A stretch of DNA of 31,720 bases from positions 1 to 31,720 of the forward strand of contig JAFMQQ010000001.1 of assembly GCA_017354595.1 (NCBI GenBank), in the 5' to 3' direction. Each line of letters opens with the position of its first letter. Position 1 is the stretch's first letter. Below, piece after piece: positions 2,258-26,749 of this stretch. This DNA is from Micromonosporaceae bacterium. GTDB taxonomy: Bacteria; Actinomycetota; Actinomycetes; Mycobacteriales; Micromonosporaceae. The notes under the pieces are model-generated. The model worked only from the letters and a program-made list of their open reading frames with translations, searched no databases and was not told the origin of the DNA. Position numbers and translations under genes: made by a program.

Positions 2258-3319
2258 ATGAGGATTCTGGTGACCGGCGGCGCCGGTTTCATCGGCCGGC
2301 GCATCGTCGAAGAACTGGTCGCCGCCGGACACCAGGTTCGGGTGTTGGATGTGCTGTTGCCCGACACCCACCCGGTACCGCGGCCGCCGGCGTTCCCGGA
2401 CGGCGTCGAGTTCATCCGCGGCGATGTGCGGGACACCGCGACCGTGGTCGCCGCGCTGCGCGGCGTCGACCTGGTCAGCCACCAGGCCGCGGTGGTCGGA
2501 CGGGGTCGGGAGATCCTGGACGCCGCGCACCACGTCTCCTGCAACGACCTGGGTACGGCGGTGCTGCTGGCCGCGATGGCCGAGCGCGGGCCGAACCGGT
2601 TGCTGCTCGGCTCGACCGTGGCCCTCTACGGCGACAGCCGGTACGACTGCCGCGAACACGGCCGGGTCCGGCCCAACCGGCGTAGCCGCACCGACCTGGA
2701 GGCCGGCCGGTACGAACCCACCTGTGTCGAGTGTGGACAGCCGCTGGTCTCCAGCGCGGTGACCGAGGAGGACCACATCGACCCGCCCCGCAACATCTAC
2801 GCGGTGACCAAGCTGGCGCAGGAGTACCTGACCGCCACCTGGGCGCGGGAGACCGGCGGCTGCGCGGTGGCGCTGCGGTACCACAACGTCTACGGGCCCG
2901 ACATTCCCTACCAGAGCCCGTACTCCGGCGTCGTCGCGGTGTTCCGCAGCGCGGTGGCGCGTGGCGAGGCACCCGAGCTGTACGAGGACGGCGGCTCGCT
3001 GCGCGACTTCGTCCACGTCAAGGATGTGGCCGCCGCGCACCTGGCGGCGCTGTCCTGGGCCGAGCCTGGCTGGCGCGCGTTCAACGTGGCCAGCGGCGTA
3101 CCGCACTCCATCGGTGACGTGGCCCGGGCACTGGCCGCCGCGGCGGGCGGCCCGCCGCCGGTGGTGACCGGCGCATACCGGATCGGCGACGTGCGGCACA
3201 TCGTCGCGTCGCCGGCCCGGATCCAGGCCGAGCTCGGCTGGCGGCCGAGCATCGACTTCGAGACCGGGATGAAGGAGTTCGCGCTGGCACCGATGCGCGG
3301 CGGACCGGAGGGACGCTAA
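2258..3319 (+). CDS. NAD-dependent epimerase/dehydratase (extended SDR, probable NDP-sugar epimerase)
   Basis: TGGAGFIG, YAVTK, RYHNVYGP, RDFVHV motifs; RBS GAGAGGGG. Confidence 0.9.
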   Translation: MRILVTGGAGFIGRRIVEELVAAGHQVRVLDVLLPDTHPVPRPPAFPDGVEFIRGDVRDTATVVAALRGVDLVSHQAAVVGRGREILDAAHHVSCNDLGTAVLLAAMAERGPNRLLLGSTVALYGDSRYDCREHGRVRPNRRSRTDLEAGRYEPTCVECGQPLVSSAVTEEDHIDPPRNIYAVTKLAQEYLTATWARETGGCAVALRYHNVYGPDIPYQSPYSGVVAVFRSAVARGEAPELYEDGGSLRDFVHVKDVAAAHLAALSWAEPGWRAFNVASGVPHSIGDVARALAAAAGGPPPVVTGAYRIGDVRHIVASPARIQAELGWRPSIDFETGMKEFALAPMRGGPEGR

Positions 3320-4533
3320 TGCTGCGGGTAGCCATCGCCGGGGCCGGTATCGGCGGCCTGTGCCTGGCACAGGGCCTGCGCCGGGCAGGCATCGAGGCGA
3401 GCGTGTACGAGCGGGACCCGGCGGCGCTGGCCCGCGGGCAAGGGTACCGGCTGCGCCTGGACCACCAGGGCCACGACGCGCTGCGCACGTGCCTACCCCC
3501 GGACCTGTTCGCGCTGCACGAGGCGACCGCCAACGCGCCGTACATGTCCAGCGGCAGTGTCTACGACCACCAGCTGAACCTGCTCTACGCCCACCAGCGC
3601 CGCGACGCCCCGCTGGACCCGGCCACCGCGAGCCGCGGAGTCAACCGGCTCACCGTGCGCCAGATCCTGCTCACCGGCATTCCTGTCCACTTTGGACGGA
3701 CAGTGGTCGGCGTGCGCAGCGGGACGGACCGGGCCTGGCTGGACTTCGCCGACGGCAGCACCGTCTGCGCCGACCTGGTGATCGGTGCAGATGGCATCAA
3801 CTCGATGGTCCGCCGGAACCTGGCGCCCGATGCCGGGCTGGTCGACACCGGACTGCGCGCCATCTACGGGCAGTCCCCGCTCGTCGAGGAACTCGTCGAG
3901 CGCCTGCCCGGCCCGCTGTTCGGCGGATCCTCGCCGGTGCTCGGGCCGCACCGGCAGACCCTGGCGCTCGGCTCATACCAGCCGGTAGTACCGCACGCCG
4001 AGGCGGTGGCCCGCACCGCGCCCCACGCCCGGCTGGATTCCTTCCCGGACTACATGAAGTGGACTCTGGTGGCACCGGCCCACCAGTTCGCGCTGCGCGG
4101 CCCGGCGCTGTGGCGGGCCAGCGCGCGGCGGCTGCATGAGCAGGCCCGGCAGTGCACCGCAGACTGGCATCCCGCCCTGGCCATGCTGGTCGAGCGGGCC
4201 GAGATCCCGGTGACCTTCCCGCTTGCGATCCGGGCCAGCGCGCCGCCGGACTGGCCGTCCGGGCGGGTCACTCTGCTCGGTGACGCCGCGCACGCGACCA
4301 CCCCGGTCGGCGGTACCGGAGCTAACACCGCGCTGCGCGACGCCGCGCTGCTCACCCAGCGACTGCGCCGGGTCATCGAGGGGAGGCTGCACCTCTCCGA
4401 GGCGGTACGCGGATATGAGGAACAGATGCGTGACTACGGCAGCACCGCGGTACGCAATTCGTTGCGCGGCGCGCAGAAGATCTTCCGGGCCGACCCCGCC
4501 GAGTTCAGCTCGGCACTGGTCGGCGTCGGCTGA
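3319..4533 (+). CDS. FAD-dependent monooxygenase (aromatic hydroxylase family)
   Basis: GAGIGG FAD motif, GADG, LLGDAAH..TP..GTGANTALRDA; start overlaps the upstream stop. Confidence 0.9.
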   Translation: MLRVAIAGAGIGGLCLAQGLRRAGIEASVYERDPAALARGQGYRLRLDHQGHDALRTCLPPDLFALHEATANAPYMSSGSVYDHQLNLLYAHQRRDAPLDPATASRGVNRLTVRQILLTGIPVHFGRTVVGVRSGTDRAWLDFADGSTVCADLVIGADGINSMVRRNLAPDAGLVDTGLRAIYGQSPLVEELVERLPGPLFGGSSPVLGPHRQTLALGSYQPVVPHAEAVARTAPHARLDSFPDYMKWTLVAPAHQFALRGPALWRASARRLHEQARQCTADWHPALAMLVERAEIPVTFPLAIRASAPPDWPSGRVTLLGDAAHATTPVGGTGANTALRDAALLTQRLRRVIEGRLHLSEAVRGYEEQMRDYGSTAVRNSLRGAQKIFRADPAEFSSALVGVG

Positions 4534-5865: not shown

Positions 5866-6327
5866 TCAGCACCACCGGCCGTCGGCCATCACCGTACGGC
5901 TGTCCATCTCGGATGGTCCGCGCCAGGCGAGCATCCGGTACGGCCGGAGGTGCACCACGATCGCCCCGGGCACCCGGTGCGGGTCCAGTGGCAGCCGGTC
6001 AAGCAGCTGGGCCAGTTGCGGATCGGCCTGGGCCGGCTCGGAGAAGCTCACCGTCGCGTCGGCCAGAACCACGTCCCGGGTCGAGCCGAGCGCTGCCCGG
6101 GCGCGACCACTGCGCCGAAGGTTGCGTACCGTCCGGCTGTCCCGCTCGGTGAGCAGCACGAGCTGTGCGCCGTCCCAGGCGTAGGCGAGGGGGATCAGGT
6201 GCGGGCGCCGGTCGCCGGCGGTGGCGAGCCAGAGGTGCCGCTCCTGGGCGAGCATGGCCTGCACGTCGGCCCGGCGCTGGTCGGCGTCGCGGGCCGGGGC
6301 CAGTGTCGGGTTCTGCGGTGGTCGCAC
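5866..6327 (-). CDS. Pyridoxamine 5'-phosphate oxidase-like split-barrel flavin/F420-binding protein
   Basis: LWLAT.GDRRPHLIPL.Y.WDG, SRTVRNLR; GTG start with AAGGGAG RBS. Confidence 0.75.
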   Translation of the reverse strand: MRPPQNPTLAPARDADQRRADVQAMLAQERHLWLATAGDRRPHLIPLAYAWDGAQLVLLTERDSRTVRNLRRSGRARAALGSTRDVVLADATVSFSEPAQADPQLAQLLDRLPLDPHRVPGAIVVHLRPYRMLAWRGPSEMDSRTVMADGRWC

Positions 6328-8733: not shown

Positions 8734-9920
8734 TCACCTCGTGGGCGTGGCCCTCCCACTACCTACCCCTGGCGCCACTGGGCTGGGCACTGCGCGCCGC
8801 CGGCCATGAGGTACGGGTCGCCAGCCAGCCCCGGCTCACCCCCGTCATCCTGGACTCCGGCGCCGTCGCCGTCCACAGTGGACCCGATCTCGACCACGAC
8901 CAGGTGCGCGCCCAGAGCATGCGCGACCTGCCGCTGGTCGCGGTCCCGCACGCGCCGGCCGCCGGAGCCACCATGCGCGACTGGGCGGCCGACCCGCGGG
9001 ATATGGTGCGCCGTGTCTTCCGCGTCTTCGTCCGGTACGCCGAGACGATGGTCGACGAGTTGCTCGACTATGCCCAGGCGTGGCGGCCCGACCTGGTGGT
9101 ATACGAGCCCACAAGCTACGCCGGCCCGCTGGTCGCCGCCGCACTCGGCGTACCCGCCGTCCGGCACGTGCAGGGCGTGGACGTCACCTACCAGGCCGCC
9201 GAGCTGCTACCCGAACTGCTCGCCCCGGTGTGCCGCCGGCTCGGACTGTCCGATGTAGACCCGCTGGGCACGGTCACCGTCGACCCGTGCCCGCCGAGCA
9301 TCCAGATCCAGGCCGGCCTGAAGCGGATCCCGGTTCGCTACATCCCGTACAACGGACCGGCCGTACTACCCGAGTGGCTGTATGAGCCGGCCGGCAAGCC
9401 GCGGCTGGTGGTCACCTGGGGCACCTCGACGACCCGACTCACCGGCAGCGGCACCTTCCGGCCCCCGGAGATCATCTCGGCCACTCGCGGGCTGGACTGC
9501 GAGCTGGTAATCGCGCTGACCGGCGCGGACGCCGCCGAGCTCGGTGAGGTTCCGAACGGGGTCCGGGTGGTGGAGTCACTCGCGCTGCACCTGCTGCTGC
9601 CCGGCTGCGCGGCGGTCGTGCACCAGGGCGGCAACGGCACCATCCTTACCGGTGTCCACTGTGGAGTACCGCAGCTGCTCCTGCCCCAGCTGCCCGACCA
9701 GACGTTCCTCGCCGACCAGTTCGCCAACTCTGGCGCGGGGATCGTGGTGCGGCCCGACCAGGCTACCCCGGAGGGGCTGCGCGAAGCCCTCGGCGCCCTA
9801 CTCCGCGAGGCGGCGTACCGGCAGGCGGCGGCGCGGTTGCGGGATGAGGCGCTGGCCCAGCCGACACCCGCCCAGATCGTCCCGGTCCTGCAGGCGCTCG
9901 CTCAGCACCGCGCCAGTTGA
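8721..9920 (+). CDS. Family 1 glycosyltransferase GT-C
   Basis: MRVLITSWAWPSHYLPLAPLGWALRAAGHEVRVASQP, VDPCPP, VHQGGNGT; true start ATG 8721 (the ORF track fuses it to a shadow frame). Confidence 0.93.
   Translation: MRVLITSWAWPSHYLPLAPLGWALRAAGHEVRVASQPRLTPVILDSGAVAVHSGPDLDHDQVRAQSMRDLPLVAVPHAPAAGATMRDWAADPRDMVRRVFRVFVRYAETMVDELLDYAQAWRPDLVVYEPTSYAGPLVAAALGVPAVRHVQGVDVTYQAAELLPELLAPVCRRLGLSDVDPLGTVTVDPCPPSIQIQAGLKRIPVRYIPYNGPAVLPEWLYEPAGKPRLVVTWGTSTTRLTGSGTFRPPEIISATRGLDCELVIALTGADAAELGEVPNGVRVVESLALHLLLPGCAAVVHQGGNGTILTGVHCGVPQLLLPQLPDQTFLADQFANSGAGIVVRPDQATPEGLREALGALLREAAYRQAAARLRDEALAQPTPAQIVPVLQALAQHRAS
8871..8883. repeat. Iterated palindrome GTCCACWGTGGAC (representative perfect 13-mer; also perfect at 11265 and 11817)
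   Basis: The 11-bp core TCCACWGTGGA is exact at 8872, 9655, 11266, 11818, 13321, 14554, 26003, 26217 and 31285. Confidence 0.9.
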
Positions 9921-11182
9921 TCTCCATCCGGCCGCGCCTCAGCGCTTGTTCCACTCGCCGTACTCCGGTGGCGCCGCTCTGCCTCCGATCCTCTGCGGGC
10001 TCCCAACTCCTCCAAGTCGTCCATCAGCTGGTCGATAGGCGCGAGTGCGTGGATGTGCCGTTGCAACCAGCGCGCCCGGGACCGGTAGCCCGGGTCGCCC
10101 AGGACCCGGGCGCAGGCGGCGGCGATCGTCGCGGCGCCCGCCTCGCCGACCGGCACCTCGACCGCGACGCCGGCCCGCACACAGGTCGCCACGTTGTGCC
10201 GGTGGTCCGAGCCGACCGGCATGCCGACCATCGGTACGGCAAGGCGCAGCGCCTCCTTGATGCTGTTCAAGCCGCCGTGGCTGAGGAACAGGTCGCAGCC
10301 CTCCAGCATCAGCGGCTGGTCGGTGAACTCCACCAGCCGCACGTTGGGCGGCAGCGACCCGAACCGGTCCAGGGACTTGCCGGAGCCGACCGCGAGTACG
10401 GCGGTGACCGGCAGCATGCCGAGCGCCGCGATCACCTCGGCGAGGAAGTCGCGGGCGCCGGGCAGGTCATACACGACGGTGCCGAAGCCGGCGAAGAGGA
10501 ACGGCCGGTCGTGGTCGAGCTCGGCGAGCCAGCCGGGTAGCCGCCCGGCGACCTGCTCGGAGCTGGTGTGCCGGTATGCGCGGGTGTTCGGCAGGATGAA
10601 CTCGCCCGCCCCGTACGCCTCGGGCAGGAAGGTCGCGTGCAGGTACCGGTAGAGCGCGGCGCCCTCCGGGTCGCCGGGCAGCCCCAGGTCCCGGCGCCCC
10701 TCGTCGAGGATCGGGGCGAGCCGCTGTCCAGTGATGCCGGACAGCCCGCCGAAGGACGCGACCGAGGCGTGCGGCACGCCCAGCACCTCGGCGGCCAGGT
10801 AGCCGCCGAACTCGTCCGCCTCCCGCACCACCAGGTCCGGCTTGAACTGTGCGGCGAGCACGTCGTGGGCGAGTGCGCGGGCGGCCGGGCCGGCGAAGGT
10901 CGCGGTGACCATCGCGTCCAGGCCGGCGAGCACGTCGGCTGCCTGGGCGAAGGAGAGCCTGGAGTACCCGCGCGGCAGCTGCGCGACGACCTCCGGCGCC
11001 CAGTCGTAGCCGGCCGGCAGGTGCGCCAGCCCGTAGCCGGCGAGCTCGCCGGACATCCGGTCCAATGTGGCCACGGCGACCTGGTGGCCGCGCCGGGCGG
11101 CGGCCTGGGCCAGCGGCACCAGCGGACGCAGGTGCCCGCTGGCTGGCTGGGTGGTGAAAAGGATCCGCATCGGTTCAGCCAT
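9902..11182 (-). CDS. Family 1 glycosyltransferase GT-D (divergent from the other five)
   Basis: RILFTTQPASGHLRPLVPLA, DLVVREADEFGG, SHGGLNSIKEAL..VPM; ATG 11182 with GGAGG RBS. Confidence 0.9.
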   Translation of the reverse strand: MAEPMRILFTTQPASGHLRPLVPLAQAAARRGHQVAVATLDRMSGELAGYGLAHLPAGYDWAPEVVAQLPRGYSRLSFAQAADVLAGLDAMVTATFAGPAARALAHDVLAAQFKPDLVVREADEFGGYLAAEVLGVPHASVASFGGLSGITGQRLAPILDEGRRDLGLPGDPEGAALYRYLHATFLPEAYGAGEFILPNTRAYRHTSSEQVAGRLPGWLAELDHDRPFLFAGFGTVVYDLPGARDFLAEVIAALGMLPVTAVLAVGSGKSLDRFGSLPPNVRLVEFTDQPLMLEGCDLFLSHGGLNSIKEALRLAVPMVGMPVGSDHRHNVATCVRAGVAVEVPVGEAGAATIAAACARVLGDPGYRSRARWLQRHIHALAPIDQLMDDLEELGARRGSEAERRHRSTASGTSAEARPDGDQLARC

Positions 11183-12329
11183 GCGCGGCACCTCCCGCAA
11201 TGGTGAGCAGTTCGTCGCGTACCTGGGCGGCCTGCGGCTGCCGGGCCATCTCCGAGCGCAGATCGTCCACTGTGGACGGCGGCGCGGAGAGCATCGTCAC
11301 GGCCTGGTCCCGGATCGCCGCAGCGGTGGCCTCGGCGGCGTAGACCATCCGGGCGGCACCGGCGGAGGTCAGCCGCTGCGCGTTGAAGATGTGGTCGGGG
11401 TTGCGCGGGACAAGCAGCTGCGGGGTACCGGAGACGAGTGCGGTCATCGCCATGCCGCCACCCCCGGAGTGCACCGCGAGGCAGCAGCTGGGCAGCAGCA
11501 GGTGCATGGCGAGTCGGGGCACCACGCGCACGTGCCCCGGCAGGTCATCGGTGACCGGGTTGACCACCACAATCTCGACATCCAGGCGGTCGAGTGCCTC
11601 GACCACCAGCGACTCGAAGGCCGTCCCGGTGCGGGCGAACCGGCCGGCGATCGTGCCACCCGTGACGCAGACCCGTGGGCGGCTCGGCGACTTGCGCAGC
11701 CAGCCGGGCAGCTGCGCGGGCCCGTTGTACGGCGCGTACCGGATGGGCAGCCGGCGCACCGGATGCGGCGCTTGCAGCGACTGCGGGCACGGGTCGACGG
11801 TAACCAGGCCCAAGGTGTCCACTGTGGACAGGCCGAGCCGGCTGGCGAGCGGCGCGAGGGCACCCGGTTCGTATTCGTGGGTCAGGTAGGTGAAGTCCAT
11901 CCCCCAGATGTGGCGCACCGCGGGCACCCCGAGGGCCGCGGCGGCCAGCGGTCCGGCGAAGGTGGTCGGCTCGAAGACCACCACGTCGGGACGGAAGGAC
12001 TCCCCGTACCGCAGCGTGTCGTCGAGCATGTCGCCGGCCAGCTCCACATAGAGGGAGACCGTGTCGGCGCCGAACTTCGCCAGCAGCTCACTGATCTCGA
12101 TCGGCCGGCCAAGCCGGTCCAGGTACTCGTGGAAGGGGCGGAGCACCGGCGCCACGTCCACGTCGGTGCCGACCGGTACCGCGGTCAGCCCGGCCTGCGT
12201 GATCGCCGGCGCCAGGCCCGGCTGGCTGGCCACCCGCACCTCGTCGCCGGCCGCCTGCATCGCCCAGGCGAGCTGGACCAGCGGATAGAGATGCGAGGGC
12301 CAGCCCCAGGTGGTGAACAGAACCCGCAC
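11175..12329 (-). CDS. Family 1 glycosyltransferase GT-E
   Basis: MRVLFTTWGWPSHLYPLVQLAWAMQAAGDEVRVASQP, VDPCP, VHSGGGG. Confidence 0.93.
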   Translation of the reverse strand: MRVLFTTWGWPSHLYPLVQLAWAMQAAGDEVRVASQPGLAPAITQAGLTAVPVGTDVDVAPVLRPFHEYLDRLGRPIEISELLAKFGADTVSLYVELAGDMLDDTLRYGESFRPDVVVFEPTTFAGPLAAAALGVPAVRHIWGMDFTYLTHEYEPGALAPLASRLGLSTVDTLGLVTVDPCPQSLQAPHPVRRLPIRYAPYNGPAQLPGWLRKSPSRPRVCVTGGTIAGRFARTGTAFESLVVEALDRLDVEIVVVNPVTDDLPGHVRVVPRLAMHLLLPSCCLAVHSGGGGMAMTALVSGTPQLLVPRNPDHIFNAQRLTSAGAARMVYAAEATAAAIRDQAVTMLSAPPSTVDDLRSEMARQPQAAQVRDELLTIAGGAAHG

Positions 12330-12332: not shown

Positions 12333-14783
12333 TCAGACCCGCCCCGGAGCCGGCCGTACCACGCCCGCCGAACCGTCCACAGTGACCAGTTGGCCGTCGC
12401 GCAGCGTGCCGGTACCGGCGCCGGTGGCGACCACCGCCGGTACCCCGTACTCCCGGGCGATGATCGCCGGGTGGGACAGCAGGCTACCGCGGTCGGTGAC
12501 CAGCGCACCGACACTGGGGAACAGCATCGCCCACTGCGCCGTGGTCTCCGGGCAGACCAACACGTCGCCGCGGCGCAGCTTGCCGAACTCCGCGACCCCG
12601 GCCACCACCCGCACCGGGCCGGTGTAGCGGCCGGGTGAGGCGGCCACTCCACGCAGCAGCACACCGTCCTGTGTGGATTCCGTCGCGCCCTGGCCGCCGG
12701 AGACCGCCATCGACCAGCGCCCGATCGCGACCACACGAAGCGCCGCCGGGGACAGGGTCACCTCGGGATCCGGCTGCGGCCCGCCCGGGTACTGCCCGTA
12801 GGTCGGTGGGCCGGGGTGGGCCAGTGCCCAGGCGTACTCCCCCTTCCGCCGGCGCACCAGCGCCGCGACCCCGCCGGCGGCAGGGCCACCGTCGACCGCG
12901 GCCAACGCCTCGTCCAGGGTGAGGAAGAATACGTCCGACGGATCGGCGAACCGGTCCAGCCGGGCGCCCAGCTCCAGGCAGGCGTAGCGCAGCAGGGCCC
13001 ACAGGCTGACGGCGTAGTAGACCTTCTCGTCGCGTACCGGCGCCGCCACACTGCTGTCGGCGACCGCCTTCTCGAACTGGGCGCGCTGCTCTGCCGGCCG
13101 GCCGGCGAGCGCCTGGCGTGCCTCGGCCAGCGCCGCGCTACGCCGCCCCTGGATCGCGGCGCGTTCGGCGGCGAAGTCGTACGGCGCATCCAGTTGCGCG
13201 GCGACCAACGCCAGCAGCGTCTCCGGATGCTCGGCGAGGGTCGGTTCGGTCAGCTCGAAGCCCACCGTCCGGTGCGCGTGCTCACGCACGTATGCATCGA
13301 ACGCCGCCGCGAACTCGGCGTCCACTGTGGATAGAGTGCTGGCCGGCCGGCCGCTGGTGAGGTGCGCGCGTACCGCCGGCCTGCCGGCGGCCAGCGCGGC
13401 CAGCTCGCCGATGCCCGTCGCCGCGCCCATGTGTACGCCGGCCAGGCCGCCACCCAGCCGCAGCACCTGCGGCGCCGACCAGCCGAGCAGGCTCCCACAG
13501 GTGACCCCGAGCTGGCCGAAGATCGCGATGGCTGCCCCGGCGAGCTGGAAGTAGACCCGGTGCAGGTCCCTGAAGGCGGTGAGCACCTCGCGGAGGTGTG
13601 CTACCAGCTGCCTGGTGGAAAGCTCTGCCCGCGGCACCTCTCGCAGCTGTTCGATTCGCGCGGCGAAGGCCGGCCGCCAATGCTCGTGCCACCGGTCCAC
13701 CAGGGAGCGCGGCTCGCCCTCGGCCAACCGCTGCGCGATCCGCTCGGCCCGGGTGGCCAGGCCACGCGTGGTGTCCTCGGGAAGTCCGACGTACGGCCAG
13801 CCGGCGATCTGCTGCACCTGCGGGGCGGCCACGGTGGTGAAGGCGAAGACCGAGGCGGCCGCGTCCCGGTAGACGTCGAGGAAGACCGCGGACTTCATCG
13901 CCGTCCACGGTCTGTCGCTGTTGTGGTCGCGCGCCCAGAACCCCGGCGGCACAACAACCTCCATCGGGATCTGCGGCGTGCTGGTTACCGGCCGGGCCTG
14001 CACCAGGCACAGCGTGCCGCTGGCGATGGCCCACTCGATGTCCTGCGGGACGCCGAAGTACCCGGCGACCCGGTCGGTGAGCGCGGCCACGTCGGCAACC
14101 TGCTCCGTGGTGAGCACATCCGGCGAGTCGTTGTCGGCGCGCCGGGCGGTGCCGTCCCGGTAGGTCCACTCCTGCGCGCTGGTCTGGCCGGACATCAGCC
14201 GGTCGCCCAGCCCGGGTACCGCGCTGACGACCGTCTCCGCGTCGCCGGTGACCGGGTTCACGCTGAACGCCACCCCGGCCGCGTCCGCCGGTACCATCAC
14301 CTGCACCAGTACGGCCAGCCCACCGGCTGAGCCGGCGTAGCGGGCCAGCCGCTCGGAGAAGCTGGAGACCCAGCAGGTACGCACCGCCGCCAGCAGGGCC
14401 GGCAGGCCTACCACGTCGAGCACCGACTCGTACTGGCCGGCGAAGGAGCGGTCGGCCAGATCCTCGGCGGTGCCTGAAGAGCGCACCGCGACGGGGCCCC
14501 CGCCGAGCCCGGCCAGCGCGGTCTCCAGCTGGGCGACCAGCTCACCCGGAATTTCCACTGTGGACAGAACGGTGGCGACAGTGGACCGGTCGACCGGGCC
14601 GGTCCCGGGCTGGCCCAGCAAGCCGGCCTTCTCCAGCACACCGGCGAGCGCTTCGGTGGTGAGCACAAAGCCGTCCGGCACCGGGAAATCCGCGGCGCGC
14701 AGCTCGCCAAGTACCGCGGCCTTGCGGCCGGCCAATGGGGCGTCGGACAACCGTACCCGCGACAACGGCAGCACCTGGCTCAT
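12333..14783 (-). CDS. PEP-synthase/PPDK-like three-domain dikinase (rifampin phosphotransferase-type architecture)
   Basis: N-terminal ATP-grasp (VPDGFVLT, VAVRSSGTAED, SFAGQYES, GVAFSVNP, PQDIEWA, QARPVT), ~400-aa central domain, C-terminal His-swivel (GVAASPG..GPVRV, LLSHPAIIAREYGVPAVV). Confidence 0.88.
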   Translation of the reverse strand: MSQVLPLSRVRLSDAPLAGRKAAVLGELRAADFPVPDGFVLTTEALAGVLEKAGLLGQPGTGPVDRSTVATVLSTVEIPGELVAQLETALAGLGGGPVAVRSSGTAEDLADRSFAGQYESVLDVVGLPALLAAVRTCWVSSFSERLARYAGSAGGLAVLVQVMVPADAAGVAFSVNPVTGDAETVVSAVPGLGDRLMSGQTSAQEWTYRDGTARRADNDSPDVLTTEQVADVAALTDRVAGYFGVPQDIEWAIASGTLCLVQARPVTSTPQIPMEVVVPPGFWARDHNSDRPWTAMKSAVFLDVYRDAAASVFAFTTVAAPQVQQIAGWPYVGLPEDTTRGLATRAERIAQRLAEGEPRSLVDRWHEHWRPAFAARIEQLREVPRAELSTRQLVAHLREVLTAFRDLHRVYFQLAGAAIAIFGQLGVTCGSLLGWSAPQVLRLGGGLAGVHMGAATGIGELAALAAGRPAVRAHLTSGRPASTLSTVDAEFAAAFDAYVREHAHRTVGFELTEPTLAEHPETLLALVAAQLDAPYDFAAERAAIQGRRSAALAEARQALAGRPAEQRAQFEKAVADSSVAAPVRDEKVYYAVSLWALLRYACLELGARLDRFADPSDVFFLTLDEALAAVDGGPAAGGVAALVRRRKGEYAWALAHPGPPTYGQYPGGPQPDPEVTLSPAALRVVAIGRWSMAVSGGQGATESTQDGVLLRGVAASPGRYTGPVRVVAGVAEFGKLRRGDVLVCPETTAQWAMLFPSVGALVTDRGSLLSHPAIIAREYGVPAVVATGAGTGTLRDGQLVTVDGSAGVVRPAPGRV

Positions 14784-15118
14784 CAGCTCTCCTCCTCCCT
14801 GCCGCGACCTCGGCCATAGGAGGCAACTACTTCATAGACACCGAACGGGCGGCCCCGGCCGGCGTCCTGATACGGCCGCAGCGGTGCGGTGGCGGCCCGG
14901 TGCGCCGTGCCCGCTTCCCACCGATGGAACGCCTCGCCGCTCGCCCACTCGCTGAGTACCAGGTACGCGCCCTCGTCGGTCAGCTCGTGCAGCAGCCGGT
15001 TGCCGAGCAACCCCTCGGTGCCGGCGAGCTCACGGCTGACCCGGTGGTAGGCCTGGGCAACCGCGTCGGGAGTCTCCTGCGGTGCACGTACCCGCAACAG
15101 GACCAGCAGGCCGCTCAT
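14783..15118 (-). CDS. Antibiotic biosynthesis monooxygenase (ABM) domain protein
   Basis: AYHRVSRELAGTEGLLGNRLL, LVLSEW...AF.RWE....H...TAPLRPY; GrhV/PdmI-type position after the KR and first ABM. Confidence 0.8.
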   Translation of the reverse strand: MSGLLVLLRVRAPQETPDAVAQAYHRVSRELAGTEGLLGNRLLHELTDEGAYLVLSEWASGEAFHRWEAGTAHRAATAPLRPYQDAGRGRPFGVYEVVASYGRGRGREEES

Positions 15119-15414
15119 TGCTTCTCCAGTGCGTACACCGTGGTCATCGTCGTCATTGAGCCCGCGGCCCGGTACGGGTGCAGCCGGACGCGGTGCTCGC
15201 GGTGCTGCGGGCTGCGCTCGTACTCCCGGAAGCTCGGCTCGTCGACCCAGTCGCTGATGATGTGGTAGACACCCGGCTCCTGCGCGCTGGCGTAGAGCCA
15301 TTGGCCGCGGTTGGCCGGCTGCCCGGTGATCACCCCGGCGCCGGACAGCCAGGCCCGCTCGAAGTCCTGCTCCTTGCCGGGGTGGGTCTGCATGCGCAAC
15401 TGCACCCGGAACAT
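15115..15414 (-). CDS. Antibiotic biosynthesis monooxygenase (ABM) domain protein
   Basis: FERAW, PAN.GQWL, YHIISDW, F...ERSPQHREHR..LHPYR; GrhU/PdmH-like. Confidence 0.82.
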   Translation of the reverse strand: MFRVQLRMQTHPGKEQDFERAWLSGAGVITGQPANRGQWLYASAQEPGVYHIISDWVDEPSFREYERSPQHREHRVRLHPYRAAGSMTTMTTVYALEKQ

Positions 15415-15415: not shown

Positions 15416-16147
15416 TCAGATGCCTCCGTCCACGTGGATCGTCTCGCCGGTGATGTAGCTGGACTCGTCGCCGACCAGGAACACCACTACCTGGGCCACC
15501 TCCGCAACGCTGCCCAGCCGGCCGACCGCGGTCAGCTGCCGGTACTTCGCGATCACCTGCTCGGGCAACGGGTGCTCGGTGGTGATGATGCCGGGAGCCA
15601 CCACGTTCACCCGCACCTGGCGCCCGCCCAGCTCCCGAGCCAGCGACCGGGTGAGCCCCTCCAGGCCGGCCTTGGCCGCGGTGTAGTGCGCCCGCATCGC
15701 AATGCCGGCCCGCGCCGACCCGGACCCGATGTGTACGACCGAGGCGGGGCCGTCGAACAGCTGCAGCGCCTGTTGCGTCAGCAGGTACGCCGCGGTGAGG
15801 TTGGTGTCCAGCACCCGGTGCCACTCCTGGGCGGGCAGCTCGGCGAACGGGATGTGGCTGATCGCCCCGGCATTGTGTACCAGCGCGTCGAGCCGGCCGT
15901 ACCGCTGCCGGCACTCGTCGAACAGTTCGCGTACCTGCTCCGGCACGCTGACGTCGGCGGGCACCAGGTGGTGCTCCCCGCCGAGCTGTTTCAGCTGCCG
16001 GCTCAGCGACTCGACGTGCTCACCTGGCGTGCGGTAGCAGGCGAGCACGTCCGCGCCGGCGGCGGCCAGGCCCAGCACGGTGCCCCGGCCGATCCCCCGC
16101 GTGCCGCCGGTAACCAGCACCTTCCTGCCGGACAGAGAGATACCCAT
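15416..16147 (-). CDS. SDR ketoreductase (FabG-like; GrhT/PdmG-type position)
   Basis: TGGTRGIG, HNAG, HYTAAK, NVVAPG, TGETIHVDGG; ATG 16147 with GGAGG RBS. Confidence 0.9.
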   Translation of the reverse strand: MGISLSGRKVLVTGGTRGIGRGTVLGLAAAGADVLACYRTPGEHVESLSRQLKQLGGEHHLVPADVSVPEQVRELFDECRQRYGRLDALVHNAGAISHIPFAELPAQEWHRVLDTNLTAAYLLTQQALQLFDGPASVVHIGSGSARAGIAMRAHYTAAKAGLEGLTRSLARELGGRQVRVNVVAPGIITTEHPLPEQVIAKYRQLTAVGRLGSVAEVAQVVVFLVGDESSYITGETIHVDGGI

Positions 16148-16160
16148 CGAGACCCTCCAC

Positions 16161-17343
<1,183 letters not shown>

Positions 17344-18579
17344 TCACTTTCGCAGAACCATCGCAGCGTTGAAGCCTCCGGTGCCGCGGGCCAGCACCAG
17401 CGCGGACCGCAGCGGCACCTCCCGCGGCTCGCCGACGACCAGGTCGATCAGATGGCGGGCGGGCACCTCGGTGACACCGACCGTTGGTGGCACCACCTGG
17501 TCACGCAGGGCCAGCAGCGCCGTCGCCACGTCCAGCGCGCCGGCACCGGCATACAGTCGGCCGGTCATCGACTTCGGTACGGTCACCGGTACCGCGCGTG
17601 CTCCGAAGACCCGGGCGATGGCGGCCGCCTCGATCCAGTCCAGATCCGGCACGCCCGCACCGTCCGCGAAGACCACATCGATGTCGCGCGCCGGGATCTG
17701 CGCGTCGCGCAGCGCGGCCTCGACCGCGCGGTCCAGCCCGGGCCGCCGGTGGCCGCCCGGCGCCGGATCAAAGGTGGCCGCGTACCCGGCGATCTCGCCG
17801 TACCCGCCGGTGGCGGCACGATCGAGCACCATCATCGCGCCGCCTTCGCCCGGCACATAGCCGGACGCCTCGGCATCGAAGGGCAGGTACGCGCGGAGCG
17901 GGTCGGCGCTGGTACTCATCCGGCCGTTGCTGGTCTGGCAAAGCATCGCGTACGGGGAGAGCGGCGCCTCCGTACCGCCGGCGAGCATCACCCGAGTGCC
18001 GGCACACCCGTCACCCGCGGCGCTGTCCGCACCCGCCGCGCTGTCCGCACCCGCCGCGCGCAGCATCCGGCGCGCCTGGGCCAGTGCGTCCAGCCCGCCG
18101 GCCTGCTCGCTGACCACCACGCCGCATGGTCCGCGCGCACCGTACCTGATGGACACCTGGCCAGTGGTCGCCGCATAGAACCAGGCGATCGACTGGTACA
18201 CCCCGATGTGGTCGGGGCCATCCGCCCACAGCTTCTGGATCTCCCGCTGGCCGAACTCGTTGCCGCCAGAGGCGGTCGAGGTCACCACGCCGAGAGCGAA
18301 GGGCGGCAGCTCCCGCGGATCGAGGCCGGCGTCGGCCAGCGCCAGCGCCGCCGCGGCCAGGCCGAACTGGGTACCCCGGTCGGTCTGCACCGCGAGCCGG
18401 GCCGGTACGTGGTCGGAGACGAAGAAGTCGGCCACCACGCCGCCGACCATCGTCGGGTACCGCACCGGATCCAGGTGTGTCAACCGGTCCAGGCCGCTCT
18501 TGCCGGCCAGCGTGGCCGACCAGTACTCCTCGGTGCCCACGCCGTTCGGCGCGACCACGCCGATACCGGTAACTCTCAT
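17344..18579 (-). CDS. Type II PKS chain length factor (KS-beta)
   Basis: [11 protein letters not shown], Gln at the active-site position ([10 protein letters not shown]), [31 protein letters not shown]; ATG 18579 with GGAGGAG RBS overlapping the KS stop. Confidence 0.96.
18020..18055. repeat. 18-bp tandem duplication inside the CLF gene
   Basis: GCGCTGTCCGCACCCGCC x2 (18020-18037, 18038-18055) with partial flanking copies; encodes [16 protein letters not shown]. Confidence 0.9.
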
Positions 18580-19850
18580 CGGGTCTCCTCCCATCCCGGC
18601 CGGGTCAACACGACGGCGCTCTGGAAGCCGCCGAATCCGCTGCCCACACTGAGCACCACGTCGACGTCGCGCTCCCGCGCAGTGACCGGGACATAGTCCA
18701 GGTCGCACTCCGGGTCGGGCACCTCGAGGTTCGCCGTCGGCGGCACCACCCGGTCGGTGATGGCCAGCGCGCAGGCCGCCACCTCGATCGCGCCGATCGC
18801 GCCCAGCGAGTGACCCACCATCGACTTGATGGAGCTGACCGGCGCCCGGTACGCGTGCTCGCCCAGGGCACGCTTGAATGCGGCCGTCTCGTGCCGGTCG
18901 TTCTGCCGGGTGCCCGAGCCGTGCGCGTTGATGTAGTCCACGTCGGTCGGGTCGACCCGGGCACGGTGCAACGCGACCCGGATCGCCTCGGCCATCTCCA
19001 GGCCGTCCGGGCGCAGCCCCGTCATGTGGTACGCGTTGCCGAAGTTGCCGAACCCGGCCACCTCGCAGTAGACCCGCGCTCCCCTGGCCCTGGCCGCGGC
19101 GGCCTCCTCCATCACGAAGACCGCCGCCCCCTCGCCGAGCACGAACCCGTCCCGCCGGTTGTCGAACGGCCGGCTGGCCGTCTGCGGTTCCGCGTTGTTC
19201 GCCGAGGTGGCCTTGATGGCGTCGAAGCAGGCCGAGCTGATCGGCGAGATTGGTGCCTCCGCGGCGCCGGCCAGCACAACCTCCGCGCTGCCCTCCTCGA
19301 CCAGCGCGGCGGCGTAGCCGACCGCATCCAGCCCCGAAGTGCAGCCGGTGGAGACCACGCTGACCGGGCCCTCGGCACCGGCCAGCCAGGCAACCTCCCG
19401 CGCGATACTGCTCGGCGTCAGGTAGTCATAAAGCTGTGGCACCGCCCGGTCCGGGTTGACCAGCCAGTCCCGCCCGCCGCCGCTGACCCGGACGTAGTGC
19501 TCCTCCAGACGCGTGGTGCAGCCCACCGCGGTGCCGATGACCGTGCCGGTGCGCTCCGGTGGCAGCGCGCCGAAGTCCAGCCCGCTGTCGGAGATCGCCT
19601 CTCGTGCGGCTACCACAGCGAACTGGGTGACCCGGTCCCACTCCCGTGCCTGCTCGGCGGTGAGCCCGTGCCGGGTCGGCTCGAAGTCACACTCTGCGGC
19701 GATCCGGGACCGGAACCCAGTGGCGTCGAAGAGCGTCAACGCTCGGGTCGCGGTACGTCCGGCGAGCATCAGGTCCCAGAAGGCCCGGGTACCGACACCG
19801 CCCGGCGCGACCACACCGATGCCGGTCAGCACCGCTCGCCGCCGGGTCAT
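18576..19850 (-). CDS. Type II PKS ketosynthase alpha
   Basis: [11 protein letters not shown] (catalytic Cys), [34 protein letters not shown]. Confidence 0.97.
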
Positions 19851-20359
19851 CCCGCGCCTCCTTCGGCAGGTGCCGCGACGGCCGGCGGGGGCAGGTGCGG
19901 GTTGGGCAACGGCTCGGTGTCGACGTGGCCGAGGGCCGGCTGCGGCGCGAGCGGCGCCAGGTGGAACACCGCGCGGGCGGGTACCGTGCCGTTGTTCTCC
20001 ACCCGGTGCCGGATCCCGATCGGCACCATCAATCCCTCACCGGCGACCAGGTGGATCGGCTGTCCGTCCACTTTGGCGTCCATCTCGCCGGAGACCACGT
20101 AGAGGAACTCTTCCGAGTACGGGTGGTAGTGCTCGGCGACGAACTCGCTGGGGGCCAGGTCGAGGGTCCCCAGGAACCCCGAGGTGGAGCCGACGGTACG
20201 CGGGCCGAGCACCACCCGGATCTCGCCGCCGCGGCGGCGGTTCGGCGGTATGTCATCCCGGCCGATCTTCACGACTCCATTGTGGACACCGCCATTGTGG
20301 ATCGCCTCGTCGTGTCCATCATGGACTGGTCCGTTGCGAGTGGACAGTTGCGCGCTCAT
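19847..20359 (-). CDS. Cupin-fold polyketide cyclase (TcmJ/WhiE-ORFII type)
   Basis: [36 protein letters not shown]; ATG 20359 with GAGGAG RBS. Confidence 0.92.
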
Positions 20360-20709
20360 GAATCGCTCCTCGGTCCGGTGTCTTCCCGGCTCCACTGGTA
20401 GAACGTGGTGGCCATGGCATCTGCGGGCTGCCGCCAACTCGGGTCGTACGGGCGCACATAGTCGGCGAGCGCGCTGTTCAGCTCGCGGAAGAGTGGATGC
20501 TCGCGGACCTCGCCGAGCCGCCGCGCCACCCCGGTCGGCCCATCGCTCTCCACCAGATGGAAGTAGAGGCTGTGATAGCTGAACAGAGTGCGGCTGCGGA
20601 CCCCGACCAGCGCGGGCAGTTCGGTGCGGTCGGATGCACCGAACAACTCGGCGACCGCGCCGGTGTGCGCCGGGTCAAGCCGCGCGACGATGAGAGTACG
20701 GGACGACAT
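20356..20709 (-). CDS. TcmI/WhiE-ORFVII-type polyketide cyclase
   Basis: RTLIVARL, ELF..SD.TELP..VGV..RTLF.Y..LYFHLVE, PYDP.W..P.DAMA..FY.W. Confidence 0.92.
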   Translation of the reverse strand: MSSRTLIVARLDPAHTGAVAELFGASDRTELPALVGVRSRTLFSYHSLYFHLVESDGPTGVARRLGEVREHPLFRELNSALADYVRPYDPSWRQPADAMATTFYQWSREDTGPRSDS

Positions 20710-21785
20710 CAGGTCTCCTTGGAGGATTGCGCTGCAGCCAGGCTGCGCCCTGGGGGTAGGAGCCGGCTCGAGGACCGGGCCAGGGCGGCCGCCGCGGCCC
20801 GCACCGTGGCGAGCTGGTCCTCGACCGATGGCGCGAGCAGGGTCAGGCCGAGCGTGGTCACGCCCGCCGCCCGGTACTCCGCGAGCCGCGGAGCGATCCG
20901 GCTCACCGGGCCGACCAGCGACGTAGCGTCGATCAGCTCGAACGGCACCGCGGCGGCTGCTGCGGCCCGATCCCCGGCCCGCAGGTGCGCCCGGATCTGA
21001 CTGGCCGCCTCGCCGAAGCCCATCCGTACCGCGAGCCGGTGGTAGATGCTGCGCTCGGCGCTGCCCAGCCCGATGAAGTTGGCGAAGTAGTGCCGCAGCG
21101 GCTGTGCCGCGGCGAGCAGATCGTCGCCGACCCCGATGGGTACCGACAGCAGCACCTCGAAGCCGGCGAGCCGGTCGCCTGGCTCCCCGGCACCCGCCGC
21201 ACGCCGCCCGGCGCGCAGCCGATCCAGCGCCTCGGCGACCTGCTGCGGTGAGCTGAACACGCCGACCCAGCCGTCACCGATTTCGCCAGCCAGCTCCTGG
21301 CTGCGCGGGCCAACCCCGGCCAGATAGATCGGCAGCCGGGCCGGTGTCGGGCCGGCGAGCTGGGCCGCGTCCGCCTCGCCCAGCCGGTAGTGCCTGCCGT
21401 GGTAGCGGACCGGCGCACCGGATAGCGCCAACCGCACCACCTCCACGTATTCACGGGTGCGGCGCAACGGCGCGTCGAAGGGTACGCCGTACCAGCCGGC
21501 CGACACGTCCGGGTTGGACACGCCCAACCCGAGCCGGAACCGGCCAGCTGACATACTGTCCAATGTGGAGGCTGTAAGTGCGGTCAACACCGGGGTCCGC
21601 GCCGGGATCTGCATGACCCCGGAGCCGAGCCCGATCCGGCTGGTCCGCGCCGCCACCGCGCCGAGCACGCTGACCGCGTCGCACCGGTACCCCTCTGGCA
21701 CCAGGGCCAGCCCGTAGCCGAGCTGCTCGGCAGCGACCGCCACTGGCACCGCGCTGTGCTGGTTGAGAAACACACCTAGCCGCAT
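20709..21785 (-). CDS. LLM-class (luciferase-like) flavin/F420-dependent oxidoreductase
   Basis: AEQLGY..V.EGY..DA, RIGLGSGVMQIPARTP, GRFRLGLGVS, PIYLAGVGP....LAGEIGDGW. Confidence 0.88.
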   Translation of the reverse strand: MRLGVFLNQHSAVPVAVAAEQLGYGLALVPEGYRCDAVSVLGAVAARTSRIGLGSGVMQIPARTPVLTALTASTLDSMSAGRFRLGLGVSNPDVSAGWYGVPFDAPLRRTREYVEVVRLALSGAPVRYHGRHYRLGEADAAQLAGPTPARLPIYLAGVGPRSQELAGEIGDGWVGVFSSPQQVAEALDRLRAGRRAAGAGEPGDRLAGFEVLLSVPIGVGDDLLAAAQPLRHYFANFIGLGSAERSIYHRLAVRMGFGEAASQIRAHLRAGDRAAAAAAVPFELIDATSLVGPVSRIAPRLAEYRAAGVTTLGLTLLAPSVEDQLATVRAAAAALARSSSRLLPPGRSLAAAQSSKET

Positions 21786-24752: not shown

Positions 24753-25205
24753 TCAGCGGGCGGCCAGCGCCGTAGCGGCCGCGTTGGCCAGCAGCGCGAG
24801 CAGCGCAGACGAGGTACGCAAATGGTGCCACCGGCGCCACCGCAGCCGCGGGTCCGACCAATCCGCCGGGATGGCGCTCGGGTCCAGCTTCTTGACCCGG
24901 CGGTTGATCGGCACATTGCCGAATTGAGAGACCAGCGAGACGCCGAGGCTGAGGGCGGCGCCCAGCCCGTACAGCGGCTGCCCGGTAGCGGCGGCCAGGC
25001 CCGTGGCGAGCAGCACGGAACTGAGCACCGCCGGCGGCATCACCCGGTCGAACCGGCGGCCGACCAACTGGTGGGTCTGCACGTACTGGGCCGGCTCCAG
25101 CGCCAGAAACGCCGGCACCACGCTGAGCGCCACCGCGAACAGCACCCCGGCGGTGACACCGGAGAGCACCAGCAGCGCCGTCGAGGCAAATTCGAGCATC
25201 GTCAT
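24753..25205 (-). CDS. Second anthrone oxygenase-like membrane protein (DUF1772)
   Basis: GVTAGVLFA, GNVPINRRV, W..PR.RW.RWH.LRT; start overlaps the stop of the carrier-condensation gene. Confidence 0.75.
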   Translation of the reverse strand: MTMLEFASTALLVLSGVTAGVLFAVALSVVPAFLALEPAQYVQTHQLVGRRFDRVMPPAVLSSVLLATGLAAATGQPLYGLGAALSLGVSLVSQFGNVPINRRVKKLDPSAIPADWSDPRLRWRRWHHLRTSSALLALLANAAATALAAR

Positions 25206-26749
25206 CCCACACCTCCAATGTCTACAGTGGACGATGCATCGCCGGCCACCTCGTCACCGAGCCGGGCCACGTGCCACAGCCAGCGTTCTGCCAACCGGGC
25301 GGCGCGCTGCGGGCTCACCGCGTCCGTGCGGTACCAGATGTGGCTGTCCCCGCCGCTGACCGGCAGCAGCGCCAGGCACAGCTCGAGGACCGAGGTACGC
25401 TGCGGCATCCAGATGCGGGTCACCGACAGCCCCGGCAGCACAAGTCCCGGGTGCTCGGTGCCCTGCAGCAGGAAACCCACCTGGCAGAACGGCGCGCGAC
25501 CAGTCGAGGTCGGCTGCAACTCCCAGTACAACCGCTCCAGCGGCATGAACTGGTCGGTCAGTACCCGCCCGAGCAGAGCAGTCGCGTGCTGCAGGCAGTC
25601 GCCCGCGCCGACCGAGGACGGGAAGCGCAGGATCGCCGAGGAGGCGAAGGCGCCGACCACGTTCTCGGCCGCTGGCTGGGTGCGCCCGGCCAGCGCCAAC
25701 CCGACCGCAAAGTCGTCTGCGCCGGTCTCTTCGCGCAACGCAAGGATCCAGGCAGCCAGATAGACCGCGCTCGGCATGGTGGCGTAGCAGCGGCAGGTCC
25801 GCCTCAGCCGCTCGGCGTTGACGGCGGACAGCCGCACCGGCTGGTCGTCGACCGGGCCGCTGGGCGACGAGGGGAGCATCTCGCACGGCATATCCGGCAC
25901 GCCCCGCAGGTGCTCCAGCCAGAACTGCTCGTCGGCCGGCGCACCCGTCACCTCGGCGGCCACCTCCTGGAATCCCGGCACCGCCGGCAGGTCCGGCTCC
26001 TGTCCACTGTGGAATGATCGGTACGCGATGGCGAGATCGCGACAGATCAACCCGTCCGACCAGCCGTCATATGCGGTCTGGTGCAGCCCGAGAGCCAGGC
26101 AGTGGTCGGCCGGGCCGAGCCGGAACAACCGCGACCGCAACGGCCGGTCCCGCCCCATATCGAACGGCTCCCAAAGCAAGCCCTCGATCGCCGCGAGCAG
26201 TCCAGCCCCGGCTACTTCCACAGTGGACAGTTCCGGCTCGGAGCCGGGCGGCAGGACGAGCGGCGTGACGCGCCAGCCGTCGTCAGTTGTCAGAATGGTG
26301 CGCAGCGCCGAGTGCCGGTCCACCAGATAGCTCAGCGCGCGAGCCAGCGCCGGCAGGTCCAGCGGACCGCGGATGCGAAACAGCATCGGGTTTATCGCGT
26401 CCCCGCTACCTGGGCGCTGCTGCTCCAGGTACCACATGCGGTGCTGGCTGACCGGCAGCCCACCTACCAGACGGGTAACGCCACCACGAGGTGTGCCCAC
26501 CAGGGGCGCGCCAGCGGCACACTCGGATCCCGAGCGGCCGGCGACGATCTCGGCGATCAGCCGCGGGGTACGCCCGGTGACCACATCCGGCGGGGTGACC
26601 AGGCAACCGTGCAGCTGCCGGAGGCGGTTCACCAACTGGACCGTGGTGACCGAATCGGCACCTGTGTCAAACAGGTCGGTATCGGGGCCGACCGGCCCAG
26701 GAAGCAGGTCGACCGCGGCACGGGTGATCGTGGTGACCAACGTTTCCAT
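25202..26749 (-). CDS. Stand-alone carrier protein (T)-condensation (C) didomain
   Basis: DLFDTGADSV carrier Ser motif; LPVSQHRMW, GPLD..AL..AL..LV.RH.ALRT, LHQTAYDGWS; no adenylation domain. Confidence 0.85.
   Translation of the reverse strand: METLVTTITRAAVDLLPGPVGPDTDLFDTGADSVTTVQLVNRLRQLHGCLVTPPDVVTGRTPRLIAEIVAGRSGSECAAGAPLVGTPRGGVTRLVGGLPVSQHRMWYLEQQRPGSGDAINPMLFRIRGPLDLPALARALSYLVDRHSALRTILTTDDGWRVTPLVLPPGSEPELSTVEVAGAGLLAAIEGLLWEPFDMGRDRPLRSRLFRLGPADHCLALGLHQTAYDGWSDGLICRDLAIAYRSFHSGQEPDLPAVPGFQEVAAEVTGAPADEQFWLEHLRGVPDMPCEMLPSSPSGPVDDQPVRLSAVNAERLRRTCRCYATMPSAVYLAAWILALREETGADDFAVGLALAGRTQPAAENVVGAFASSAILRFPSSVGAGDCLQHATALLGRVLTDQFMPLERLYWELQPTSTGRAPFCQVGFLLQGTEHPGLVLPGLSVTRIWMPQRTSVLELCLALLPVSGGDSHIWYRTDAVSPQRAARLAERWLWHVARLGDEVAGDASSTVDIGGVG

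Follow-up and report, generated by a model that had tools for sequence, protein, structure and literature searches.

The DNA analysed here (the window) is a stretch of 31,720 nucleotides from a Micromonosporaceae bacterium and makes up an entire contig (JAFMQQ010000001.1; C820) of a draft genome about 70% complete. Among its type II polyketide synthase (PKS) genes lies a gene for an 816-residue protein that, by domain order and catalytic residues, is an intact dikinase of the rifampin phosphotransferase (RPH) superfamily, and this protein belongs to a separate dikinase clade linked to type II PKS biosynthetic gene clusters (BGCs) of the same kind. The reading frame is not a chance one, as its length, the Pfam E-values and hundreds of full-length homologues attest. 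The gene, its domains and its immediate neighbours are the following.

12333–14783, minus strand: dikinase gene (P0001), 816 amino acids plus stop, ATG start (open reading frame list and translation)
13959–14783, minus strand: ATP-grasp domain, residues 1–275, with K21 at 14721–14723, R101 at 14481–14483 and S120 at 14424–14426
12669–13958, minus strand: central acceptor-binding domain (Rph_4th), residues 276–705, with the R584-D585-E586-K587 motif at 13023–13034
12336–12668, minus strand: phosphohistidine swivel domain, residues 706–816, with S770-H771 at 12471–12476
14783–15118, minus strand: ABM-2 monooxygenase, 111 amino acids, own PF03992 match; its stop overlaps the dikinase ATG
15115–15414, minus strand: ABM-1 monooxygenase, 99 amino acids, own PF03992 match; ATGA overlap with ABM-2, and start 1 nucleotide past the ketoreductase stop
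15416–16228, minus strand: ketoreductase (KR; short-chain dehydrogenase/reductase), which opens the recurrent KR-ABM-(ABM)-dikinase string
11175–12329, minus strand: GT1 glycosyltransferase (GT), GTG start 3 nucleotides past the dikinase stop
9902–11200, minus strand: second GT1 glycosyltransferase, overlapping the end of the first

These genes form an operon in the order KR, ABM, ABM, dikinase, GT, GT, with all junctions at most 4 nucleotides long or overlapping. The dikinase ATG overlaps the ABM-2 stop as TGATG and is directly preceded by a Shine-Dalgarno-like run, GGGAGGAGGAG; its own TGA stop is followed by three nucleotides (GCG) and then by the GTG of the first GT1 gene at 12329. Both junctions are as described in a first-pass annotation of this DNA, which was, however, mistaken in placing a single 172-residue ABM upstream: that frame is an over-extended version of the second ABM gene, and the true arrangement is a tandem pair. 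Such ABM-ABM pairs are also found at the loci L004 (Crossiella), L006 and L135, and the complete KR-ABM-ABM-dikinase-GT-GT order recurs identically at L004 of Crossiella sp. SN42.

Pfam places PPDK_N at residues 16–271 (E = 1.4e-48) and PEP-utilizers at 737–807 (E = 3.3e-22), and the centre of the protein is covered by the precomputed family PF27448 (Rph_4th). The residues that are essential by mutagenesis in the Listeria enzyme RPH-Lm are all present in the window protein and are invariant or conservatively replaced in its clade: Lys22, Arg117 and Thr136 of RPH-Lm correspond to K21, R101 and S120, Arg666-Glu667 to R584-D585, and His825 to H771. K21 and R101 are invariant, and position 120 is Ser or Thr, in all 37 clade members; the R584-D585-E586-K587 motif is likewise invariant in the clade, and the catalytic His in all 95 sequences aligned for the tree described below. 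Lys670 of RPH-Lm aligns with V588, with K587 adjacent. An AlphaFold model (pLDDT 84.6, pTM 0.71) matches the RPH-Lm structure 5HV1 over its full length and all three domains (Foldseek E = 9e-37; VIA Z 29.3 over 727 residues, model residues 1–813, rmsd 11.6, the domains being posed differently). Taken singly, the ATP-binding domain of RPH (5hv6) is matched with Z 27.0 and rmsd 2.6, the swivel domain matches those of pyruvate kinase and Enzyme I (Z 15–19), and the ATP-grasp structure of HpeI (9GOJ) is among the best ATP-grasp matches of the model (Z 23.8). Thus, the 816-residue protein with ATP-grasp, central and His-swivel domains and a Ser-His motif, its RPH domain order and its phosphohistidine-relay residues, all noted at first pass, are confirmed by the reading frame, Pfam, the alignment and the structural match. 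Because every residue essential in RPH-Lm is present, the sequence predicts that both half-reactions should take place: conversion of ATP to phospho-His, AMP and Pi, and transfer from phospho-His to an acceptor hydroxyl.

Within the superfamily, the protein stands apart from RPH itself, from the prodiginine enzymes RedH and PigC, and from phosphoenolpyruvate (PEP) synthase. It scores 291 bits with the RedH model (NF052632), 250 with PigC (NF052631), 246 with RPH (NF041857) and 223 with PEP synthase (TIGR01418), all far under the curated NCBIfam equivalog cutoffs of 1350, 1300, 999 and 740 bits, respectively. As anchors, ten actinomycete RPHs (1472–1611 bits) and eight RedHs (1569–1692 bits) were taken, and a 95-sequence tree was computed from the RPHs, seven of the RedHs and 76 relatives of the window protein (MAFFT alignment, quick LG+G4 search, SH-aLRT support only, midpoint root). 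Its anchors are the NCBIfam-defined RPH and RedH equivalogs, to the exclusion of YvkC, PigC, PpsA, phenylphosphate synthase, true PEP synthase and the clades of Stogios et al. RPH and RedH each form a clade with 100% support and group with one another, and together they are split from the group of the window protein by a 100% branch. The ATP-grasp and swivel domains share 38 and 43% identity, respectively, with the RPHs, and the central domain 17% (ten actinomycete RPHs); the corresponding values for RedH are 38, 44 and 19%, and between RPH and RedH, whose substrates are unrelated, central-domain identity is 18%. Of the 12 RIF-binding-domain blocks, block 1 was compared directly: GQQMM of RPH, containing the phosphate-contacting Gln337, is DHNSD in the window protein.

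An ordinary rifamycin phosphotransferase gene (rph) that had come to lie in the cluster by chance would explain the domain order, the best matches in the Protein Data Bank being to RPH-Lm, and the name 'rifampicin phosphotransferase' that homologues carry in some automated annotations. Against this stand the 246 bits where 999 are required, the divergent central domain, the missing GQQMM signature, the 100% branch that separates the RPH clade, and an identity to RPH-Lm of 23–26%, whereas validated RPHs (clade A) are more than 42% identical to it (Stogios et al. 2016). The same authors reported that what distant clades retain is the catalytic Arg-Glu(-Lys) block alone, and that a protein from one of them conferred no rifampin resistance when tested; a stray rph is extremely unlikely here. 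A PEP synthase or pyruvate phosphate dikinase (PPDK) of primary metabolism, which generic database names and the common ATP-grasp and swivel domains might bring to mind, has next to no probability: a Pfam scan of the protein found no PEP/pyruvate-binding TIM-barrel domain, the His domain occupies the last 110 residues and is thus C-terminal rather than central, and the TIGR01418 score is 223 bits against 740. Grouping with true RPH or PEP synthase had been named at first pass as the outcome that would speak against an enzyme for the cluster's own chemistry, and the absence of such grouping favours that proposal. There is also no prodiginine or tambjamine pathway context: the neighbours are type II PKS, ABM, KR and GT genes, and no pyrrole-pathway genes are nearby.

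The clade of the window protein has 37 members (99% support; the relative at L127, which has an interrupted frame, was kept out of the tree), shares an invariant RDEK-type motif and the invariant stretch VLVCPETTAQW, and places the protein from L050 as sister to that of the window (99%). By tblastn with the PKS proteins of the window, 19 of the 37 members have genes for ketosynthase (KS-alpha), chain-length factor (CLF), TcmI, cupin, aromatase/cyclase (ARO/CYC), KR or ABM within 10 kb, and a further ten have GT or luciferase-like monooxygenase genes of the cluster within the same distance; at L067 a 73%-identical KS-alpha lies about 18 kb away on the same contig, and L062 has sugar, O-methyltransferase and P450 genes nearby. 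Overall, about 30 of the 37 are located within or next to related clusters of type II PKS genes; the more than 15 actinomycete genera concerned belong to the Micromonosporaceae, Streptosporangiaceae, Pseudonocardiaceae, Streptomycetaceae, Nocardiaceae and Thermomonosporaceae, and none of the 39 more distant relatives (at most 41% identity) has such PKS-cluster markers nearby. Together with the separate clade, co-occurrence with similar PKS clusters, which the first-pass annotation had proposed as a check, distinguishes this gene from a stray rph.

Two positions recur within these clusters. In the first, KR, ABM (one or two copies) and the dikinase are followed by a GT or an asparagine-synthase gene, and this KR-ABM-(ABM)-dikinase string is shared by the window with L050, L004, L064, L069, L073, L076 and L083. 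In the second, the order is P450, ferredoxin, dikinase, Amidohydro_2, in some cases a MarR regulator, FAD-dependent monooxygenase, a membrane protein of a family here called f5, and a fused ABC exporter. Another clade member has a nonribosomal peptide synthetase context and adjoins an exporter of the major facilitator superfamily. A deep subclade (L073/L075/L076/L083) is common to the dikinase tree and a small KS-alpha tree, and this suggests, from sequence relationships, a long co-residence of the dikinase in the clusters. At the same time, PKS cores without a dikinase (L134–L136) reach KS-alpha identities as high as 70–75% and interleave with dikinase-bearing cores in the KS-alpha tree, and the one from Thermostaphylospora has the same fusion of acyl carrier protein (ACP) with ARO/CYC and the same KR-ABM-ABM string as the window. 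With such close cores lacking it, the dikinase gene is accessory, and the polyketide scaffold does not need it.

The first-pass annotation had left open whether the acceptor is the aromatic polyketide or its sugar chain; of these, the polyketide is now favoured. An enzyme that phosphorylates a sugar of the oligosaccharide chain or a nucleoside diphosphate-sugar precursor, in the manner of glucan-water dikinase, would suit the two GTs directly after the dikinase and a cluster with six GTs and with deoxy- and aminosugar genes. However, in Labedaea, Umezawaea and Saccharothrix the dikinase lies within the PKS core on contigs of 83–248 kb on which no EryCIII-type (PF06722) GT was found, and no sugar genes lie near the orphan copies described below, so that a sugar acceptor is very unlikely. 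Because dikinase-bearing PKS clusters without such a GT exist, the conserved acceptor would be the aromatic aglycone, and the phosphate most likely goes to one of the phenolic or alcoholic hydroxyls of the aglycone that the cluster makes. Aromatic acceptors have precedents in the superfamily: phenols are the acceptors of HpeHI, CreHI and PpsAB (PMC12167813), and YvkC, the flavonoid phosphate synthetase of B. subtilis, phosphorylates flavonoids, as cited in PMC13099321.

Intact copies in Microbispora sp. NPDC049125, Actinomadura macrotermitis and Actinoplanes subtropicus are nested in the clade, although in these three draft genomes no TcmI-type cyclase and no KS-alpha above 45% identity were found. 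Orphan copies of this kind adjoin SARP, two-component or MarR regulators and the f5 membrane protein, and no sugar genes were seen nearby. Compared with their BGC-linked sisters, the substrate domains of the orphans are as conserved as the ATP-grasp domains (74 versus 75, 79 versus 80 and 67 versus 66% identity). The f5 protein accompanies the dikinase both in BGCs, just before the fused ABC exporter, and in orphan loci, and may be a dedicated export or sensing partner. Its members have 230–280 residues with five or six predicted transmembrane segments (L051:15313–16053, L052:11253–11936, L053:13008–13844 and ten more loci); no Pfam family was assigned, and only a weak, sub-threshold likeness to DUF3159 was seen.

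Together, these observations lead us to a tentative reading, to which we give slightly less than an even chance: ATP-dependent O-phosphorylation of the aromatic polyketide aglycone as self-protection, the product being held as a masked pro-form. By homology to RPH-Lm, ATP would be bound by the N-terminal ATP-grasp domain and its beta-phosphate taken by His771 on the C-terminal swivel, with release of AMP and Pi; the swivel would then move to the central domain, where Arg584 and Asp585 would orient the phospho-His for transfer of the phosphate to a hydroxyl of the acceptor bound there. A toxic polyphenol could in this way be kept phosphorylated, and so masked, inside the producer until export, and orphan copies in non-producers would be resistance genes against the same compound class. 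Here the acceptor and the physiological role are the parts that we infer, whereas the intactness of the enzyme, its distinct clade, the link of that clade to these BGCs and the independence of this link from GTs are shown by the data. Protection is favoured because intact orphan copies occur in genomes without the PKS and the distribution is accessory, because the orphan substrate domains are as conserved as the ATP-grasp domains, and because the orphans adjoin regulators and f5, while the BGC copies often stand in a string with f5 and the fused ABC exporter; the clade member beside the major facilitator exporter points the same way.

Several observations pull the other way. In at least eight clusters the dikinase is translationally coupled between tailoring oxygenases and GTs, a position more usual for a biosynthetic enzyme than for a resistance gene. 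The locus L002 carries a 58-residue epimerase fragment beside the dikinase, and orphan loci may be remnants of decayed clusters; moreover, the absence of the PKS from orphan genomes and of GTs elsewhere is read from draft assemblies, which for the orphan genomes come without a stated completeness. The f5 protein was not found in the window's own genome, in one query of the roughly 70%-complete assembly, a negative that is uninformative. A search with KS-alpha returned generic annotations and no characterised relative by which the product of the cluster could be named. Nor does a dedicated phosphatase recur in the clusters: Y_phosphatase3 is found in L004 and L105 only. The lack of a recurrent phosphatase neither supports nor excludes a pro-drug cycle, and these two cases are the only hint of a kinase/phosphatase pair. 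In Amycolatopsis sp. cmx-10-5 the gene lies directly beside the dikinase (L105:12523–12804, minus strand), and in Crossiella it lies at the edge of the cluster (L004:1–324).

The operon position is better matched by a biosynthetic role, in which a transient phosphate on an early or nascent polycyclic aglycone marks it for recognition by a later enzyme (as in the Hpe, Cre and phenylphosphate pathways), protects it or acts as a leaving group (as with PigC and RedH), and is gone from the final product; the dependent steps would be those of the neighbouring oxygenases, Amidohydro_2 or GTs, with the oxygen leaving by substitution or elimination. The coupled KR-ABM-ABM-dikinase-GT-GT arrangement, the occurrence of the KR-ABM-dikinase string in eight loci of distant genera, and the placement elsewhere of the dikinase after P450-ferredoxin and before Amidohydro_2 and the FAD monooxygenase all fit this idea, as does the long cluster residence indicated by the deep subclade that the dikinase and KS-alpha trees share. 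There is a mechanistic parallel in the Hpe carboxylase, for which the phenol must be phosphorylated to be accepted (PMC9618137). Of the NCBIfam models, that of RedH scores best (291 bits versus 246 for RPH), and the Ser-His of the window protein is common to PpsA, CreH and RedH, with Thr-His in RPH. The tree, by contrast, places RedH with RPH and away from the clade of the window protein; intact, normally evolving copies persist in genomes without the PKS, and close cores lack the dikinase, including one with the same ACP::ARO/CYC fusion and KR-ABM-ABM string. A proposed phosphatase analogy also failed: Amidohydro_2 was considered as a counterpart of the CreD/HpeD phosphatase and rejected, HpeD being a NagD-like enzyme of the HAD type. 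As RedH shares the Arg-acid pair, the catalytic residues cannot separate formation of a stable ester from transient activation. On balance, we regard a transient phosphate as the main rival reading, rather unlikely but by no means far-fetched. The alternative posed at first pass, pro-drug self-resistance or activation of an oxygen, is in this way only partly settled, the orphans and the accessory distribution leaning to protection and the operon position to biosynthesis. Self-protection by a masked pro-form, phosphorylated early and carried through tailoring, would reconcile the two lines of evidence.

It is also conceivable that the mature natural product is itself a phosphorylated aromatic polyketide. 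The enzymology would be the same, and the lack of a recurrent dedicated phosphatase would be natural. Orphan copies without the pathway would then have no role, though, and to our knowledge no phosphorylated type II polyketide has been reported; we hold this to be improbable.

Known systems resemble the proposed one in part. RPH (RPH-Lm, 5FBS/5HV1) has the same single chain of ATP-grasp, central acceptor and C-terminal His-swivel domains, the same Lys, Arg and Thr(Ser) residues in the ATP site, the Arg-acid pair at the apex of the central domain and the catalytic His, and presumably, to judge from the sequence, the same reaction of ATP and acceptor to AMP, Pi and phospho-acceptor. It stands alone, however, and has Thr-His, whereas the window enzyme is part of a type II PKS operon, has Ser-His, lacks GQQMM and belongs to a separate clade. 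RedH and PigC use phosphate as a leaving group in C-C bond formation. They share the three-domain order, the secondary-metabolite cluster setting and Ser-His with the window enzyme, and RedH gives the top NCBIfam score; the scores are nonetheless far from their cutoffs, the central domain is only 19% identical, and the clade is a different one. YvkC, HpeHI, CreHI and PpsAB belong to the same superfamily and use a phospho-His relay on aromatic hydroxyls, as is proposed for the window enzyme, and PpsA and CreH have its Ser-His motif; HpeHI, CreHI and PpsAB differ in consisting of two polypeptides and serving the catabolism of small monoaromatics, where the window enzyme is a single 816-residue chain, and none of the four is associated with a PKS cluster. 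Modification-based self-resistance inside antibiotic clusters is exemplified by streptomycin 6-phosphotransferase and the oleandomycin glycosyltransferase OleI. The logic proposed here would be similar, with export of a product that the producer has masked by transferring a group to it, but those enzymes have unrelated folds (APH kinases and GT1). We know of no RPH-type dikinase in such a self-masking role, nor of any such case in a type II PKS cluster.

In the literature on type II, aromatic and pentangular polyketides, no description of such a dikinase or of a phosphorylation step was found, in line with the remark made at first pass that no such step is known in type II PKS pathways; the one pentangular match concerns albofungin, where a neo phosphotransferase marker and a sugar kinase are all that is mentioned. 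While both the family and its mechanism are already known, no paper found in these searches describes a dedicated clade of it in type II PKS clusters, for which an aromatic polyketide is proposed here as the acceptor. Stogios et al. predicted small molecules not yet known as the substrates of most clades of this large family. The known roles of RPH-type dikinases are rifamycin resistance, prodiginine ligation and phenol-activating catabolism; one whole clade can now be tied to a substrate class, the products of widespread, uncharacterised long-chain type II PKS clusters of rare actinomycetes. If the enzyme is protective, it would represent a new kind of self-resistance for aromatic polyketides, with a resistance gene that already circulates as orphan copies and that resistance-guided genome mining could use as a marker. 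A biosynthetic enzyme would instead introduce phosphate handles into type II PKS tailoring, where such chemistry would be new, and with them the logic of phenol and acetovanillone catabolism and of prodiginine assembly.

The wider cluster in the window includes two further features of interest for the comparison with related loci.

16618–21785, minus strand: upstream core, in the same operon direction, with luciferase-like monooxygenase, TcmI-type cyclase, cupin, KS-alpha, CLF and ACP::ARO/CYC
3319–4533, plus strand: FAD-dependent monooxygenase (FAD_binding_3), the family that most often adjoins the dikinase in related clusters

The core is syntenic in L001/L050 and L004, and the type II PKS set of the window additionally comprises an Anthrone_oxy protein and the KR. 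Also present are six GT1 genes with deoxy- and aminosugar genes, and genes for an orphan didomain of peptidyl carrier protein and condensation domains (PCP-C), a nitroreductase, a zinc-dependent alcohol dehydrogenase, the FAD monooxygenase and a SARP regulator. The family of this FAD monooxygenase ('FADMO3') occurs in 12 of 33 loci and directly follows the dikinase or its Amidohydro_2 neighbour at L050, L054, L055, L067–L070 and L090. The product class of the cluster is, we infer, long-chain and pentangular-like. In a Micromonospora subclade (L076:12548–14410, L083:12516–14381), an asparagine-synthase-type amidotransferase stands directly after the dikinase, with a second copy at the opposite end of the locus; amidotransferases of this type are characteristic of pathways to pentangular polyphenols.

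Elsewhere in the same genome, contig C612 (L133:1–17149) carries two P450s, an ABC transporter pair, a GT1, an O-methyltransferase, an Amidohydro_2 protein that shares 56% identity with the one beside the dikinase in Streptosporangium, and a sugar epimerase/dehydratase, and is probably a second fragment of the same BGC. In this assembly no RPH above the cutoff was found, the relatives of the dikinase being a PPDK-like reading frame on C329 and a split pair on C387 (17862–19653, minus strand; L008/L010), in which a 443-residue protein with central and swivel domains is followed by a 479-residue ATP-grasp protein. The split pair has the arrangement of the phenol dikinases HpeHI and CreHI and is unrelated to the PKS contig.

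The PCP-C didomain (25202–26761, minus strand) has a 59% identical counterpart in the sister cluster L001/L050 and weaker ones (33–41%) in L064/L066 and in the Streptomyces rameus group; as it recurs across sister clusters, it is a recurrent member of this BGC family. The ACP::ARO/CYC fusion of the window (16618–17331) is found outside the Micromonosporaceae as well, at L135:12464–13168 in Thermostaphylospora chromogena, a member of the Streptosporangiales, whose cluster is without a dikinase and carries SchA/CurD. In the Crossiella cluster, an APS-kinase domain is fused to a PNPOx-like domain (L004:18133–19140, minus strand), a sign that sulfation chemistry may take place there; in the window, PNPOx is encoded only by a stand-alone gene (5866–6327).

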